From: Candidatus Microgenomatus sp.
GTDB taxonomy: Bacteria > Patescibacteriota > Microgenomatia > UBA8517
NCBI GenBank assembly: GCA_020724585.1
Contig: DYGS01000001.1
Span: 136,096 to 200,095 of the forward strand
Length of the DNA: 64,000 nucleotides
Direction: 5' to 3'
The notes under the pieces were generated by a model. The model had not been told where the DNA came from. It saw nothing but the letters and a program-made list of their open reading frames with translations, and searched no databases. How positions within the stretch are numbered: position 1 is the first letter of the stretch; each line of letters opens with the position of its first letter. The position numbers and the translations under genes are program-made. Shown here one piece after another: positions 354-8,862 of this stretch.

Positions 354-1136
354 ATGTATTTGATGTATATTGATGAGTCTGGAGATACTATCCCCCTTTC
401 TCAAAAAGGTAAGAAATTTCTCGTGCTGACGGGTTGCATAATTCATGAGAATAGTATTTGTGAAATTGAACAAAGGTTTAGAAAAATAAAGCATGATTAT
501 TATCAGAATAGCGATATAGAAATAAAGTCAAATTTTTTAAGATATGCTAACCCAGATTTGACTGAAGATTCACCATTAAAGTTAAATTCAAAAGATAAAT
601 ATAATGATTTAGAGAAAGATATTTCTGAATTACTGAAGAATATTGATGTTGTTTTATATTCTGTTGTAATAGATAAAGAGTCGTATTGGTCCCAATATCC
701 ATCTCAAAATCCATATAATATAGCATATTTGTTTTTATTAGAGAGATTCCAAATGTTTTTAAAAAGTAAGGATTCTTTAGGAATATGTATAATTGACCCT
801 CGTGAAGGTCAAACAGAAAAGCACTTTATGGGAAATGAATTAAACAATATTCATCAAAAAATGCGGCATGAGGATGGGTCTATATGGAAGAAGTGCTCAA
901 ATGTTATTGAAAAATTGTTATTTTCTCAATCAGATCAAACGATTGGAATTCAAATAGCAGATCTGTATTGCTATCCTATATATCATGTTTTTGAATATGA
1001 CAAAAAGTACAATGAATACTGGAGATTTGAAGAACTAAGTTTGCCAAAATTGTATAAGAACAATGACAAATTCGATGGCTTTGGATTGAAATATTTCCCA
1101 GATAAAACGAAAAAAGACCTTAGATTTTTCTCCTAA
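354..1136 (+). CDS. DUF3800-family protein (predicted RNase H-like fold), function unknown
   Basis: N-terminal 'MYIDESGD' is the DUF3800 hallmark (YIDESG). A later 'IQIADLYCY' resembles the conserved QxAD motif. ATG at 354 (or 363); a TATAAT lies 6 nt upstream. Confidence 0.6.
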   Translation: MYLMYIDESGDTIPLSQKGKKFLVLTGCIIHENSICEIEQRFRKIKHDYYQNSDIEIKSNFLRYANPDLTEDSPLKLNSKDKYNDLEKDISELLKNIDVVLYSVVIDKESYWSQYPSQNPYNIAYLFLLERFQMFLKSKDSLGICIIDPREGQTEKHFMGNELNNIHQKMRHEDGSIWKKCSNVIEKLLFSQSDQTIGIQIADLYCYPIYHVFEYDKKYNEYWRFEELSLPKLYKNNDKFDGFGLKYFPDKTKKDLRFFS

Positions 1137-1893: not shown

Positions 1894-4206
1894 ATGAAAA
1901 GAATAGAAAAAAAATTAGAATTGGGTGGTAAAACACTAACACTCACAACAGGAGAATTAGCAGAACAGACTGCCGCAGCTGTTACAGCAAGGATTGGCGA
2001 TACAGTGGTATTGGCTACTGTTGCCGCCGCCGATCTTAAACAAGAACTTGATTATTTTCCTCTGCTCATTGATTACCAAGAGAGGCTTTATGCGGGTGGA
2101 AGAATAAAAGGATCAAGATGGGTCAAAAGAGAGGGAAAACCCACAGATGAAGAGATTTTATCAGGGAGATTGATTGATAGGTCAATAAGACCGCTTTTCC
2201 CCAAAACTTACAAGAAAGAAGTTCAGATAGTTGTAACTGTGCTTTCAGTTGATTTGGAGAATGATCCTGCAATTGTTGGAGCTCTTGCCGCCTCAGCCGC
2301 TGTTCATATTACATCCCTTCCTTGGAAAGGGCCAGTATCTGTATTAAAAATTGGATCGGATAATGATGGAAAATACTTATTAAATCCAACTCATGCAGAA
2401 ATTGAAGCTTCAAAAATGGATCTGGTAGTTTCTTCAACTAAAGAAGCCGTTTTAATGGTTGAAGCTGGAGCTAATGAAGTTGTCGAGGAAGAAGTATTAA
2501 CAGGAATTAATTTTGCATTTGATGAAAGCAAAAAAATATTAAAGCTTATTGAAGACTTTGCAAAAGAAGTTGGGGTAAAAAGAGATGTTTATGAAGAAGA
2601 AACACCATCTGTCGAACTTGAAAAAGAAGTTTCAAAATTGGTTAAAGATGAACTGCCTAAACTTGTTAAAAATATGGCGCTTCATGAGGGTGCATCAAGC
2701 GAATTTGAAGAATTTGTATTAGCTGTTTCCGAGAAGTTTGACGCGGAAGAAGATAAAAAGTGGGTTTCCTACATAATTGATCACCTTAAAAAAGATTACA
2801 TCAGAAATCAAATATTAGAAAAAGGGTTAAGACCAGACGGAAGAAAATTAACTCAAATTAGACCACTTTCGGCTCAAGTTTCATATCTTCCAAGAGTTCA
2901 TGGTTCAGGAATTTTTCACAGAGGTCAAACACAAGTATTGTCCGTTGCAACACTGGCTGCTTCGTCTGAAAGTTTGCTTTTAGAGTCAGCAGAAGGTGAG
3001 GATGAAAAACGCTATATTCATCACTATTCAATGCCTCCATATGCAAACGGCGAGACAGGAAGAATCGGGACGCCTGGAAGGCGCGAGATAGGTCACGGAG
3101 CATTAGCCGAACGGGCACTGCTTCCTGTAATTCCCTCCAAAGAAGAGTTCCCATATACAATTAGGGTAGTTTCTGAGGTCATGAGTTCGAATGGTTCTAC
3201 ATCAATGGCTTCAGTTTGTGGATCGACCTTAGCTTTGATGGATGCGGGCGTACCGATTAAAGCGCCTGTTTCAGGAATTGCCATGGGCTTAATTTTTGGT
3301 GATAAAGGCAAATTTGCAGTCTTGTCTGACATAATGGGGATTGAAGACTTTAATGGCGATATGGACTTTAAAGTCGCTGGAACTGATAAGGGAATTACCG
3401 CTTTACAGCTTGATGTTAAGACTTTGGAATTAACACCTGAAATTTTAGAAACGGCCTTAAAACAGGCAAAAGAAGGCAGGAGCCAAATCTTAAAAGTTAT
3501 AACTGAGACAATTGGCGAGCCAAGAAAGGAGGTCAGTGTTTATGCTCCAAAAATTAAAGTTGTTACTATTCCTGTTGATAAAATTGGCGAGCTAATAGGC
3601 CCAAGCGGCAAAAACATCAAGAAGTTATCAGCTGATACTGGCGCAGAAATTGAAGTTGACGATTTTGGGCAAGTTAGCATATCGGCGGTGGATGTCTCAG
3701 CTCTTGAAAAGGCGGTTTCCTATGTAGAGGGTTTGACAAAAGAGGTTCAGCCAGGAGAAATCTACGATGGAGAGGTTGTAAGGCTTATGAATTTCGGAGC
3801 TTTTGTTAATATTCTTCCGGGTAAAGACGGAATGGTTCATGTTTCAGACATGGGTCAGAGCGGGTATGTAAACGATGCCTCTGATGTTTTATCAATTGGT
3901 CAAAAAATAAAAGTAAGAGTCAAAAAGATTGATGAAATGGGGAGAGTTAATCTCTCTTTGAATCTTGATCCGTCAATGGATGAGAAAGTGGAAGAAGAAA
4001 AAAAATCACATTTCATTTCCCGTGGGAATTCCGGTAACAGAGAAAGGGGTCATTTTAATCGAGGTCCAAGAGGCGGATTTAACAGAGATAAGCAAAGCTT
4101 GGCCGGCTACGGCAGTAGAGGCAGCGATAGAAGAAACGGCAGGCCAGGCGGCCCGCACTTTCCAACTTCAAGATACTTCCAGTCAAATACAAATCCTGAC
4201 AGGTGA
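1894..4206 (+). CDS. pnp: polynucleotide phosphorylase (PNPase) with ~75-aa Arg/Gly-rich C-terminal extension
   Basis: Two RNase PH-like domains ('RPLSAQVSYLPRVHGSGIFHRGQTQVL', 'MPPYANGETGRIGTPGRREIGHG'), then KH ('IGELIGPSGKNIKKL') and S1 ('GEVVRLMNFGAFVNILPGKDGMVHVS'). The tail contains RGNSGNRERGHFNRGPRGGFNRD...RGSDRRNGRPGG. Confidence 0.95.
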   Translation: MKRIEKKLELGGKTLTLTTGELAEQTAAAVTARIGDTVVLATVAAADLKQELDYFPLLIDYQERLYAGGRIKGSRWVKREGKPTDEEILSGRLIDRSIRPLFPKTYKKEVQIVVTVLSVDLENDPAIVGALAASAAVHITSLPWKGPVSVLKIGSDNDGKYLLNPTHAEIEASKMDLVVSSTKEAVLMVEAGANEVVEEEVLTGINFAFDESKKILKLIEDFAKEVGVKRDVYEEETPSVELEKEVSKLVKDELPKLVKNMALHEGASSEFEEFVLAVSEKFDAEEDKKWVSYIIDHLKKDYIRNQILEKGLRPDGRKLTQIRPLSAQVSYLPRVHGSGIFHRGQTQVLSVATLAASSESLLLESAEGEDEKRYIHHYSMPPYANGETGRIGTPGRREIGHGALAERALLPVIPSKEEFPYTIRVVSEVMSSNGSTSMASVCGSTLALMDAGVPIKAPVSGIAMGLIFGDKGKFAVLSDIMGIEDFNGDMDFKVAGTDKGITALQLDVKTLELTPEILETALKQAKEGRSQILKVITETIGEPRKEVSVYAPKIKVVTIPVDKIGELIGPSGKNIKKLSADTGAEIEVDDFGQVSISAVDVSALEKAVSYVEGLTKEVQPGEIYDGEVVRLMNFGAFVNILPGKDGMVHVSDMGQSGYVNDASDVLSIGQKIKVRVKKIDEMGRVNLSLNLDPSMDEKVEEEKKSHFISRGNSGNRERGHFNRGPRGGFNRDKQSLAGYGSRGSDRRNGRPGGPHFPTSRYFQSNTNPDR

Positions 4207-4302
4207 TTGATTTTTGGTGATAAAACCTATAAATATAAAACAATTCACACACTTTTAGAACTTCCTGCTATACTATAACTACGATTACTGTTTAAATTAA
4301 AT

Positions 4303-5352
4303 ATGGACAATACTGCCTTTCAAGAAATAGATGTACTTTCTTCAAAAATTTCAGGTTCTAGTATACCTGAAGATTTGTTAAAGTCGGTAAACATTCGTTT
4401 GGAACAATTAAAAAAATTAACAAATTCTCCCACTTTTTTACCCGAATATGACAGGATAAATAAATATATTGATTGGATTGTTTCGCTTCCTTGGGAGAAA
4501 AAGTCGCAAGACAACCTTGATTTGGAAAATGCCAAAAAAATATTAGATGAACATCACTATGGCTTGGAAGATATTAAAAATAGAGTCTTGGAATATCTTG
4601 CAGTCATGAAATTAAAACAGGAAAAAGGTGAAGGAAGCGATGTATATAGGGCACCAATCCTCTGCTTCGTGGGTTTAGTTGGAACCGGCAAGACAACAAT
4701 TGCTTATTCGATTGCAGAGGCTTTAGGGCGAAAAATTGCCCGCATTCCATTTGGAGGAATGGGAGATCCACTAGATCTTCGTGGACAATCAAAGATGCAT
4801 CCTGAAGCTGAACCGGGAAAAATTATTAAAGCCCTAAGAGATACTGGCTTTAGAAATTCTGTGATTCTTCTTGATGAAATAGACAGGGTCACAGACCAAG
4901 GTAGAGCCTCAATAATGGGTGTTTTGGTTGAACTTTTGGATCCCGGACAAAACCATGCTTTTACGGATCACTATATAGATTATCCAATAAATCTTTCGGA
5001 GTGTATTTTTATAGCAACTGCCAACAATACAACAAATATTTCAACTGCTGTGATGGACAGAATTGAGCCTATTATGATGCCTTCGTATACAGATCAGGAA
5101 AAAATTGTAATTGGGAAACAGTATGTTTTTCCCAAAGCTCTAAAATCATCGGGGCTTCCAGAAAATACGATTTCTATAGACGATGAGGTATGGGTAAATT
5201 TGGTAAGGCCATTGGGATACGATGCTGGTATCCGTACAATGGAGAGGACAATCGCAGGCTTGGTCAGGAAAGTTGCCAAAATGGTGGTTGAGGGCAAAGG
5301 AACCCACTTTGATGTAAACTCCCAAAATATAAAACAGTTTTTACCACAATAA
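4303..5352 (+). CDS. Lon-type AAA+ ATPase module without LAN N-domain and without protease domain
   Basis: 'LPWEKKSQDNLDLENAKKILDEHHYGLEDIKNRVLEYLAV' matches the Lon pre-AAA segment. Walker A GLVGTGKT, Walker B ILLDEID, sensor-1 TANN, Arg finger VMDRIEP, sensor-2 GIRTMER. The ORF stops where the Lon protease domain would begin. Confidence 0.8.
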   Translation: MDNTAFQEIDVLSSKISGSSIPEDLLKSVNIRLEQLKKLTNSPTFLPEYDRINKYIDWIVSLPWEKKSQDNLDLENAKKILDEHHYGLEDIKNRVLEYLAVMKLKQEKGEGSDVYRAPILCFVGLVGTGKTTIAYSIAEALGRKIARIPFGGMGDPLDLRGQSKMHPEAEPGKIIKALRDTGFRNSVILLDEIDRVTDQGRASIMGVLVELLDPGQNHAFTDHYIDYPINLSECIFIATANNTTNISTAVMDRIEPIMMPSYTDQEKIVIGKQYVFPKALKSSGLPENTISIDDEVWVNLVRPLGYDAGIRTMERTIAGLVRKVAKMVVEGKGTHFDVNSQNIKQFLPQ

Positions 5353-5383
5353 TAATGAAAAACAAGAATACAATGTAGATTTA

Positions 5384-5470
5384 ATGTTTGCCTCAATTGG
5401 AATAGTTGTGGCTGTTGTCTCATTGCAAATTGCTGTAAAATACAGAGAAGGAGTAAATAAAAATGGATGA
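5384..5470 (+). CDS. mini-ORF 1: 28-aa single-TM peptide (MFASIGIVVAVVSLQIAVKYREGVNKNG)
   Basis: ATG 5384, TGA 5468-70. Hydrophobic core with a basic tail. Its stop overlaps the next start (ATGGATGA). Confidence 0.3.
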   Translation: MFASIGIVVAVVSLQIAVKYREGVNKNG

Positions 5471-5564
5471 AAGAATATCAATAGTTTATGCGATTGGAAT
5501 AATAGCTACTTTTTCGTTTATTTTATGGTCTTATAGACAGATTTTTGGAGACAAGAAAAAATGA
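5463..5564 (+). CDS. mini-ORF 2: 33-aa single-TM peptide (MDERISIVYAIGIIATFSFILWSYRQIFGDKKK)
   Basis: ATG 5463, TGA 5562-64. ATGA overlap with mini-ORF 3. Confidence 0.3.
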   Translation: MDERISIVYAIGIIATFSFILWSYRQIFGDKKK

Positions 5565-5674
5565 GTTTGCCAACCTTTTTATACATAGTTGCGTCAGTAA
5601 TTGCTGTTTACACGATTTATATCGTGTTTTATAAAGATAAAAAAATTGATAACTATTGTGATAAACGAGTTTGA
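5561..5674 (+). CDS. mini-ORF 3: 37-aa single-TM peptide (MSLPTFLYIVASVIAVYTIYIVFYKDKKIDNYCDKRV)
   Basis: ATG 5561, TGA 5672-74. Same architecture as the other two peptides: short N-terminus, ~18-aa TM helix, Lys/Arg-rich tail. Confidence 0.3.
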   Translation: MSLPTFLYIVASVIAVYTIYIVFYKDKKIDNYCDKRV

Positions 5675-7197: not shown

Positions 7198-8862
7198 ATG
7201 TTGCGCTTCATAGCTCTTTCAGGTACCACCGGCGTAACCGAAAACCTCTATCTTTACGAAACCGATAAAGAAATGGTGGTATTGGATTGTGGGATAGGAT
7301 TCCCCGATCTAGAAATGCCTGGAGTTGACCTTGTAATCCCTGATTTCTCATATGTTGTTAAAAATAGCCATAAATTAAGGGGAATAATCTTATCCCAAGG
7401 CCACGAGGATCATATCGGATCGCTACCCTTTTTATTGCGAGATTTATGGTCGAAAAAAAATAAAACACAAATCTGGGGTGCCGCTTTGGTTCGTGAATTT
7501 TTGGAATATAAATTCAAAGATTATGCTATACCTCGGGATAGCTATAAAATAAATGTTTTTAACCCCGAAAAGGACAGTTTTTTTGTGGGCCAGTTTAAGG
7601 TTTCACCTTTTAGGGTTACGCATTCCGTTCCCGACACTGTTGGTTTTCTGATTGAGGCGGAAGGTAAGAGAATAATGCATGTGCCTGAGCATAAAATGGA
7701 TCAAGAGTCAGTTGATGGCATGTCTTTTGATATTTCCCGCGCCAAAGCTTTAGCACAAGATGGAGTGCTAGCTTTAATGCTTGATTGTCTTGGAGCAAAT
7801 CAATCCGGTTTCACCCCAAGCGGCGTTCCTATAGAAGAAAATCTGTTTAAAATTTCAAGAAATGCTAAAGGAGCTATTTTTATGTCAGCGATGTCCTCGT
7901 CAATCGGCAGATTCCAGCAAATGATAAATGTTGCCAATCGTTTGGGTAGAAAAGTTGTATTTGTAGGAAGGTCTATAATCGAAAAAGCGAAAAGTGCGCA
8001 CAAACTTGGCTATCTAAAATATCTTGACGATAATATTGTTGAATTAAGAAATGTGGGGAAATACTCTAGGGAAAAACTTGTATATATAATTGCTGGTTGT
8101 TATGGCCAGATAGGGAGCTCTGTTTACAGAGTTTCATTAAACGAAGAGGATAGGGTAAAAGTGAAAAATGGTGATGTATTTATTTTTTCTGCAAATCCTG
8201 CACCTCCATATTCAAAGGAAAGTCAGGATTTTGTGATCGACGAATTGATTGATAAGGGGGTTGATGTTCATTATTACGATCTCCATGAAAACCTGCATGT
8301 CTCCGGTCACGGTTATCAGGAGGATATCAAAGCTTTAATTAATATCGCCAAGCCCAAATATTTAGTGCCCACAGGTGGAACGATCAGACACATGAGTGCT
8401 TTTGAAAAATTAGTCGTTTCTATGGGGAAACCCTCAAAAAGCGTTTTTAAATTAAAACCAGGAGATTCTATAGAATTTAAGGACGGCTATGCTGTTTTGG
8501 GCAAGAAAATAAAGGTTAAAGAAGTGATGGTTCACGGATTGGGGATCGGAGATATCGGAAAGACGGTTTTAAAACACAGAACTCTTTTGGGAAAACAAGG
8601 AGTTGTTGTTATTGCAATCAAAGCTGACAAAAAAGGAAAAATTTTAGGATTTCCTGAAATAGTTTCTCGCGGATTTGTTTTTGAGGGAATCTCAAGCGGA
8701 CTATTAAATGATTCGGTTCAGAGGCTCTTGAAGCATTTAAGATACAAAAACGGCATGAATGCAAAAGCGATCAAAGAAGAAACTGTAAAGTTTTTGGAAA
8801 ACCACTTTTACCAAGTGACTGCTCGAAGCCCAATGATTATACCTGTTGTAGTTGAAGTATAG
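7198..8862 (+). CDS. rnj: ribonuclease J (metallo-beta-lactamase / beta-CASP)
   Basis: 'SQGHEDHIGSLPFLL' is the HxHxDH motif. 554 aa with a beta-CASP middle region and an RNase J-type C-terminal domain. Confidence 0.9.
   Translation: MLRFIALSGTTGVTENLYLYETDKEMVVLDCGIGFPDLEMPGVDLVIPDFSYVVKNSHKLRGIILSQGHEDHIGSLPFLLRDLWSKKNKTQIWGAALVREFLEYKFKDYAIPRDSYKINVFNPEKDSFFVGQFKVSPFRVTHSVPDTVGFLIEAEGKRIMHVPEHKMDQESVDGMSFDISRAKALAQDGVLALMLDCLGANQSGFTPSGVPIEENLFKISRNAKGAIFMSAMSSSIGRFQQMINVANRLGRKVVFVGRSIIEKAKSAHKLGYLKYLDDNIVELRNVGKYSREKLVYIIAGCYGQIGSSVYRVSLNEEDRVKVKNGDVFIFSANPAPPYSKESQDFVIDELIDKGVDVHYYDLHENLHVSGHGYQEDIKALINIAKPKYLVPTGGTIRHMSAFEKLVVSMGKPSKSVFKLKPGDSIEFKDGYAVLGKKIKVKEVMVHGLGIGDIGKTVLKHRTLLGKQGVVVIAIKADKKGKILGFPEIVSRGFVFEGISSGLLNDSVQRLLKHLRYKNGMNAKAIKEETVKFLENHFYQVTARSPMIIPVVVEV

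Follow-up and report, generated by a model that had tools for sequence, protein, structure and literature searches.

What can a Lon motor do when it is encoded without a protease? The question is raised by a gene of Candidatus Microgenomatus sp. (Patescibacteriota; Microgenomatia; UBA8517), which lies in a stretch of 64,000 nucleotides of contig DYGS01000001.1 (assembly GCA_020724585.1, positions 136,096 to 200,095 of the forward strand); this whole stretch is called the window here, and all coordinates are counted from its first letter. The open reading frame (ORF) at 4303..5352 on the + strand opens with an ATG and encodes a protein of 349 amino acids (aa), and an earlier note, made from the sequence alone, had described it as an orphan Lon-type AAA+ module without the N-domain and the protease domain of Lon. 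LonAAA is the name used below for the family of short Lon-derived ATPases to which this gene belongs. A review of the Lon proteases states that all Lons contain both the ATPase and the protease domain in a single chain (PMC9569914), and a full-text literature search turned up no account of a naturally protease-less Lon, nor any of Lon in the candidate phyla radiation (CPR)/Patescibacteria. On balance, we favour the reading that LonAAA is a conserved descendant of LonA, made up of the NTD3H and AAA+ portions only, which would act as a protease-independent ATPase remodeller or chaperone.

Domain content and boundaries

The Lon-type module described in the earlier note was borne out by matches in Pfam, NCBIfam and the PDB. 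Pfam recognized an AAA domain at residues 120–258 and a Lon_lid at residues 281–332 of the window protein, and matched neither Lon_C (PF05362) nor LON_substr_bdg, the LAN N-domain (PF02190). The NCBIfam profile TIGR00763 'lon' was matched with an E-value of 3.9e-97 over positions 255–571 of 795, and NF008053 over positions 247–579 of 784, with the equivalog cut-off missed in both cases (326.6 bits vs 608.05 for TIGR00763 and 249.2 vs 891 for NF008053). The best PDB sequence match was Bacillus subtilis Lon (3m6a, E 2.9e-76) and the other PDB matches listed were also Lon, such that the scenario of a generic AAA ATPase fails. All of the motifs that had been quoted (LPW, ILDEHHYGL, RVLEYLAV, GLVGTGKT, ILLDEID, TANN, MDRIEP and GIRTMER) are found in the protein, and the motif-for-motif correspondence with Lon stands; the residue range proposed for it, ~260–600, shifts slightly N-terminal, as the protein aligns end to end with LonA residues ~245–580, comprising the three-helix bundle located ahead of the ATPase in Lon (NTD3H), the core of the AAA+ module and the lid, at ~36–44% identity across the whole 349 aa. 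An AlphaFold2 monomer model (mean predicted local distance difference test score, pLDDT, 89; predicted template-modelling score, pTM, 0.81) was compared over its full length with Lon chains using Foldseek, giving template-modelling (TM) scores of 0.80–0.87 (query-normalised). The window protein is the NTD3H bundle, AAA+ core and lid of LonA, and nothing more.

The three-helix bundle equivalent to the Lon NTD3H occupies residues 1–61 (4303..4485, + strand; model helices 2–17, 23–38 and 45–61). Conservation was computed here and below over 100 non-redundant family members, in which Y55 (96%) and W58 (90%) correspond to Lon Y294 and W297, two residues with described roles (PMC7239648). Alignment against canonical Lon places a family-specific insertion of three residues, F45-L46-P47, in this bundle. 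At the other end of the protein, the small alpha-helical lid covers residues 263–349 (5089..5349, + strand), and the C-terminus NIKQFLPQ aligns with the junction between lid and protease in Lon; within this tail N342 is conserved in 96% of members and F/Y346 in 100%. An in-frame TAA located 6 nt 5' of the ATG makes an N-terminal extension impossible, and a run of three in-frame stop codons closes the ORF (TAA TAA TGA, 5350..5358, + strand), with only 365 nt from the stop to the next gene.

A conserved gene under purifying selection

The short form is not peculiar to one assembly. The identical protein is present on five contigs from independent assemblies (the three shown are one JGI metagenome and two Logan runs), and the 120 closest 90%-identity clusters, at 71–100% identity, are all 348–349 aa long and contain AAA and Lon_lid only. 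In each of the 92 loci that were fetched the ORF has 317–383 aa, the 317-aa case being cut by a contig end. The ratio of non-synonymous to synonymous substitution (dN/dS) was 0.06–0.10 against three species at 81–85% identity, a comparison in which dS is near saturation. Members of the family consistently terminate where the protease domain of Lon would start. LonAAA is thus a genuine gene on which purifying selection is strong. Nothing was found in favour of an artefact. That it should instead be a truncated lon, created by a frameshift, a misassembly or recent decay into a pseudogene, is scarcely conceivable: the same boundaries recur in independent assemblies, the short form is found in all 92 loci and in the 120 closest clusters, dN/dS is low, and a triple stop closes the ORF just ahead of the next gene. 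The frameshift scenario considered in the earlier note is likewise contradicted by the GTDB species genomes, where the short form accounts for at least 587 matches.

An intact ATPase site

The residues that bind and hydrolyse ATP in Lon are retained throughout the family. In the Walker A motif (GLVGTGKT, residues 124–131, 4672..4695, + strand), which reads GPPGVGKT in Lon, G124, G127, G129, K130 and T131 are each conserved in 100% of members, as are D191 and E192 of the Walker B motif (ILLDEID, residues 188–194, 4864..4884, + strand). The same is true of the sensor-1 asparagine N241 (5023..5025, + strand), the trans-acting arginine finger R253 (5059..5061, + strand) and the sensor-2 arginine R311 in the lid (5233–5235, + strand), the equivalents of Lon N473, R484 and R542, whose roles have been described (PMC7239648). 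The equivalent of Lon Y456 is also kept; the bridging glutamate (Lon E447) is present in only 59% of members. LonAAA carries every residue that Lon needs for ATP binding and hydrolysis, in line with the earlier impression that the ATPase looks functional. Because the Walker A and B motifs, sensor-1, the trans-acting arginine finger and sensor-2 are 100% conserved, LonAAA is likely to be an active oligomeric ATPase, and since an invariant trans-acting arginine finger makes sense only in an oligomer, the protein is expected to form a Lon-like ring that hydrolyses ATP.

A rebuilt pore

As a polypeptide is threaded through Lon, Y398 and I399 intercalate into it, and the loop on which they sit is braced by R395/R396 (PMC7239648). 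Across the canonical Lons this pore loop 1 reads RGHRRTY[VI]GxMPG, with the arginine at 98%, the threonine at 98%, the tyrosine at 100% (81/81) and the glycine at 98%. In LonAAA the pattern is RGQS[RK]x[H/F/R/S/N][P/A/L][D/E]AEPG. Position 166, among the 100 members, is H in 34, F in 15, R in 11, S in 11, N in 8 and Y in 7; position 168 is D or E in 92% of the family and position 170 is E in 97%. The loop of the window protein, RGQSKMHPEAEPG (residues 160–172, 4780..4818, + strand), has His-Pro where Lon has its aromatic residue and I/V399 (H166 for Y398, P167 for I/V399), together with S163 for R395, E168 for G400 and E170 for M402.

The segment at residues 196–207 (4888..4923, + strand), which we read as the counterpart of the 'RGDPxSA' pore loop 2 in Lon, is altered as well. 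It reads VTDQGRASIMGV in the window protein and contains a 2-residue insertion, and in the family the Lon glycine (96%) becomes A/G/S, the proline (95%) becomes isoleucine (86%) and the alanine (99%) becomes valine (86%). The motor of LonAAA thus appears intact, whilst the residues that define a polypeptide translocase appear to be gone, with a conserved acidic loop in their place. It is for this reason that the 'Lon unfoldase' of the earlier note is a doubtful label: the pore tyrosine found in 81/81 canonical Lons is retained in ~7% of the family and is a histidine here, and the flanking arginine and glycine are replaced by serine and Asp/Glu. Because the substrate-gripping Tyr-Ile/Val pair has been replaced and the putative pore-loop-2 segment changed, LonAAA would be unlikely to thread or unfold proteins processively into a peptidase.

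The search for the missing domains

Three full-length Lons supplied the N-domain and protease-domain queries for a tblastn search. No match was obtained at E<=1 across the 64-kb window, and none at E<=1e-3 across the 92 related loci, 1.2 Mb in total. No peptidase gene lies within ~8 kb of LonAAA in any of the 92 loci, and Pfam searches of ten further window ORFs returned only MacAB, RecA, RNase Y, an ABC transporter, DUF3048 and SecDF. The possibility of a neighbouring protease or N-domain gene, in whichever frame, is rejected across the 64-kb window and across ~8 kb to either side of LonAAA in the 92 loci.

These searches bear on the idea of a split Lon, in which the AAA+ ring would dock on a separate ring of peptidase subunits (a stand-alone Lon_C, ClpP or HslV), with a gene elsewhere in the genome, and drive ATP-dependent proteolysis. 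The intact ATPase site and the retained NTD3H speak for it, and the conserved C-terminal tail (N342 and F/Y346) could be a docking element. The same tail, however, just matches the lid-to-linker sequence of Lon itself, and the tyrosine needed to feed a proteolytic chamber has been lost; moreover, a split enzyme can usually be expected to have its subunit genes side by side in one genome or another, and neither the window nor the ~8 kb around the gene in the 92 loci yielded a Lon protease domain. We regard a split Lon as unlikely. The suggestion in the earlier note that the module might deliver substrates to something else may still hold, with no peptidase gene among the neighbours within ~8 kb in the 92 loci to receive them.

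Distribution and phylogeny

A scan of GTDB, using one genome per species, gave at least 587 confirmed LonAAA matches, one of which is in the complete genome CP011214.1 of Woesebacteria GW2011_GWF1_31_35. Wherever the title is informative, the best 80 of these matches belong to Woese-, Shapiro-, Gottesman-, Ames-, Davies-, Levy-, Curtiss-, Roizman- or Collierbacteria, and one distant relative comes from Dojkabacteria. LonAAA is widespread in Microgenomatia, and its relatives reach Dojkabacteria. An exhaustive HMMER search over 1.84 billion representatives recovered more distant short relatives at 40–57% identity with lengths of 348–669 aa, the extra length of the longer ones being low-complexity sequence; canonical Lons of ~770–830 aa reached at most 44% identity to the window protein. 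The longer members were considered as possible Rosetta-stone fusions and rejected, as those examined (P0125, P0132, P0140, P0146, P0152, P0162 and P0212) add only low-complexity N- or C-terminal extensions. The records of several loci (L013, L018, L029, L035, L081, L089 and others) are titled 'uncultured Gammaproteobacteria', 'Pseudomonadales', 'Candidatus Bathyarchaeia archaeon' or 'Candidatus Methanoperedens sp.'; they show an rpsO-pnp-LonAAA-RNase J arrangement like that of labelled Microgenomates, and the titles are probably taxonomic mislabels or the result of mis-binned contigs.

A neighbour-joining tree of 258 Lon AAA modules, including 81 canonical Lons and 63 tandem-AAA modules, was built as a rough distance tree. 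It placed 99 family sequences in one clade of 100, the extra member of which also has the short form, and set this clade apart from both the canonical Lons and the tandem-AAA modules; on this rough tree the LonAAA family is a single clade. The canonical Lons nearest to the family, P0200 and P0234, were examined as possible CPR Lons without an N-domain and rejected: they look like frameshift-type artefacts, with C-terminal protein sequences that degenerate into Arg/Gly/Pro-rich stretches, and the contig of P0234 is without CPR-type gene context.

The tandem-AAA Lons (P0121–P0138, P0143, P0150, P0153 and others) are proteins of ~890–1400 aa in which two or three NTD3H+AAA modules are followed by a single Lon_C; to our knowledge such 'stacked' Lons have not been described. 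P0133 has in addition an N-terminal repeat-like region that is ankyrin-like by eye. The upstream modules of several (P0121, P0122, P0123, P0126 and P0137) resemble LonAAA in not being directly fused to the protease domain. These proteins differ from LonAAA in having Lon_C at the end, in often having hydrophobic N-termini and in falling outside the LonAAA clade, and P0121 and its like were discarded as a parent family for LonAAA: their high scores are summed over tandem modules, and none of them falls inside the family.

It is here that a further explanation can be weighed, namely that LonAAA is a modulatory paralogue, a non-proteolytic subunit that would assemble together with a canonical full-length Lon whose gene lies elsewhere, or would cap it, and would thereby tune it. 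The arginine finger, NTD3H and lid are all Lon-like, and natural proteins with two or three tandem Lon AAA modules before one Lon_C show that extra modules can share one polypeptide with a Lon protease domain. Against this, the family has moved away from canonical Lon: the mean corrected distance is 1.19, compared with 0.73 among LonAAA members, and several Lon-conserved positions are among those that differ. We consider a tuning subunit of this kind improbable.

Genomic context

LonAAA lies in a conserved block, all on one strand, with the order dnaK-dnaJ-nusA-infB-x-rpsO-pnp-LonAAA-(metallophosphoesterase/UDG)-RNase J-ftsK, where UDG is uracil-DNA glycosylase. In the window, pnp (1894..4206, + strand) encodes a PNPase of 770 aa with an Arg/Gly-rich C-terminal tail, and its stop at 4206 agrees with the 96 nt that had been given between the two genes; this AT-rich spacer (4207..4302, + strand) contains no terminator-like hairpin that we could find. 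The RNase J gene follows at 7198..8862 (+ strand), with variable genes in between. The comparison of gene order across related Patescibacteria that the earlier note had proposed showed that pnp ends directly upstream of LonAAA in 43/63 GTDB species loci with enough flank, and RNase J starts <=4.5 kb downstream in 53/61 loci, being directly adjacent in 26. The arrangement is partly retained even by members at only 40–57% identity to the window protein. LonAAA is probably a housekeeping gene that shares its transcript with pnp and, in many cases, with RNase J.

The slot 3' of LonAAA is variable. In the window it holds three tiny, overlapping hydrophobic ORFs (5384–5470, 5463–5564 and 5561–5674; 28, 33 and 37 aa), the triplet of tiny transmembrane peptides beside which the earlier note had placed the gene. 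The ORFs exist, but they are absent from the closest other species, so that a functional link with LonAAA was dropped; conservation is seen in PNPase on the upstream side and in RNase J on the downstream side. In other loci the slot is filled by an unrelated 131-aa ORF (L014, 9070–9465) or by T5orf172 and GIY-YIG endonuclease genes (L008, 7984–9070).

The PNPase encoded beside LonAAA carries a tail of ~80 aa, rich in Arg and Gly, after its S1 domain (window 3960–4206). Similar basic RG-rich tails are found on almost all Microgenomatia PNPases in the fetched loci (L013–L092), and a 'GGPHFPTSR' motif is common to several Woesebacteria-like tails; the distant relative in L012 is without a tail. 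We treat these tails as a lead, not as evidence.

The gene order might point to a different role, in RNA decay, with LonAAA as a component or regulator of a PNPase/RNase J assembly; the acidic pore of LonAAA might engage the Arg/Gly tail of PNPase or other basic RNA-binding segments. The pnp-LonAAA-(UDG/metallophosphoesterase)-RNase J order on one strand, with short spacers, is shared by relatives at 40–100% identity, and an acidic pore loop would suit the basic tails of the neighbouring PNPases. The case consists of synteny and charge complementarity; the RG-rich tails are ordinary RNA-binding appendages and the gene order may be ancestral. Firmicutes, too, show an rpsO-pnp ... rnj ... ftsK order. 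Unrelated genes (UDG, metallophosphoesterase and homing endonucleases) are, in addition, often inserted in the block. A part in RNA decay is to our minds a doubtful proposition.

Over the window as a whole (1 to 64000), each 2-kb bin has a positive GC skew and 47/48 ORFs of >=150 aa lie on the + strand, as would befit a core region on the leading strand; by ORF size and position, parts of it look like rpoB/rpoC and ribosomal-protein operons, recA, RNase Y and secDF being the only core-region genes confirmed by Pfam. A DUF3800 gene (window 354–1136) is inserted in the housekeeping block, as are two ParE/Phd toxin-antitoxin pairs in the parts of the same genome that flank the window (L001, 1964–2528 and 17815–18350).

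Comparison with known systems

The closest comparison is with LonA itself (MEROPS S16; TIGR00763/NF008053), with which LonAAA shares the NTD3H, the HCLR-type AAA+ core and the Lon lid, as well as Walker A and B, sensor-1, the arginine finger, sensor-2 and the equivalents of Y294/W297 and Y456. It differs in being without the LAN N-domain and the Ser-Lys protease domain, and in having S[RK]x[H/F/..][P/A/L][D/E] where LonA has RRTY[VI]G. Of five features that mark membership of LonA, only the Lon-type AAA+ module with NTD3H and lid is present; the N-domain, the protease domain, the pore-loop tyrosine and a score above the cut-off are all wanting. LonAAA should not be annotated as a Lon protease. 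Database labels for the family currently include 'AAA family ATPase' (NCBI) and 'ATP-dependent Lon protease' (JGI).

An Escherichia coli Lon AAA+ construct (6n2i) has near-identical boundaries (chain residues 8–339 of 344) and the same fold, with TM scores of 0.87 (query-normalised) and 0.89 (target-normalised); it is a laboratory truncation, whereas LonAAA is a natural gene product with pore loops of its own. LonC of Meiothermus taiwanensis, a Lon-like protease that does no ATP-powered unfolding, retains its protease and has a dead ATPase module (PMC3391209, PMC13069640). Both LonC and LonAAA are natural Lon relatives that have given up one of two coupled activities, and LonAAA is the mirror image of LonC in keeping a complete ATPase site without a protease.

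Motors from protease families that work without proteolysis are familiar in other AAA+ clades. FtsHi/Ycf2 of the chloroplast, and ClpB/Hsp104 as compared with ClpA, are examples, and in these the aromatic pore loops are retained. A counterpart derived from Lon did not come up in the literature that was searched. A role in anti-phage defence, of the kind known for Lon-like ATPases such as BrxL, was also considered for LonAAA and found no support: PADLOC gave only weak, partial matches (the best being DolB at 1.1e-09 over ~100 residues, with other ATPase models likewise weak and partial), and the context is that of housekeeping genes.

A proposed protease-independent remodeller

The reading that we favour, of LonAAA as a conserved motor-only descendant of LonA, can be put as a sequence of steps. 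The protein would assemble into a ring as Lon does and hydrolyse ATP; its pore would be lined by the non-aromatic, acidic [H/F/R/S/N]-[P/A/L]-[D/E]-A-E-P-G loop instead of the Tyr-Ile/Val pair, with the putative pore-loop-2 segment changed too; and, with processive threading disfavoured, it would more likely serve as an ATP-driven chaperone, remodeller or disassembly factor that needs no protease. Negative charge is conserved at the pore, which suggests that the clients may present basic segments. Several points weigh against this reading. Around 22% of members keep Phe or Tyr at the pore-loop position, and some gripping of substrates may persist. Oligomerisation is deduced from conserved residues, and clients with basic segments are proposed from the charge of the loop. 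The search for a peptidase covered the window and ~8 kb around the gene in 92 loci, and a trans-acting peptidase or a canonical Lon partner may be encoded elsewhere. The conserved synteny, finally, could reflect inherited gene order rather than a functional link. After the favoured reading we rank, in order, the split Lon, the accessory of RNA decay and the modulatory paralogue.

A bolder extension would join the pore to the neighbouring genes. A Lon stripped to its motor in Microgenomatia might use an acid-lined pore to recognize Arg/Gly tails, such as that of the PNPase encoded upstream, and serve either as the ATP-dependent remodelling subunit of a PNPase/RNase J machine for RNA decay or, more widely, as an extractor of basic RNA-binding proteins from RNA. 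Katanin and spastin grip the acidic tails of tubulin, and an acidic pore acting on basic tails would follow the inverse charge logic. We offer this as a speculation with a low prior of being right.

Implications

LonAAA constitutes a natural, strongly conserved, motor-only lineage of Lon in which the pore residues that define a protein translocase appear to have been replaced. Its recognition corrects the label applied by JGI, since without a protease domain these proteins cannot be proteases. If LonAAA is indeed an active ring ATPase, it would provide a compact 349-aa Lon-type module for structural work and a naturally occurring test case for the abilities of a Lon AAA+ ring without proteolysis, and it would open a view of protein, and possibly RNA, quality control in the small-genome bacteria of the CPR.

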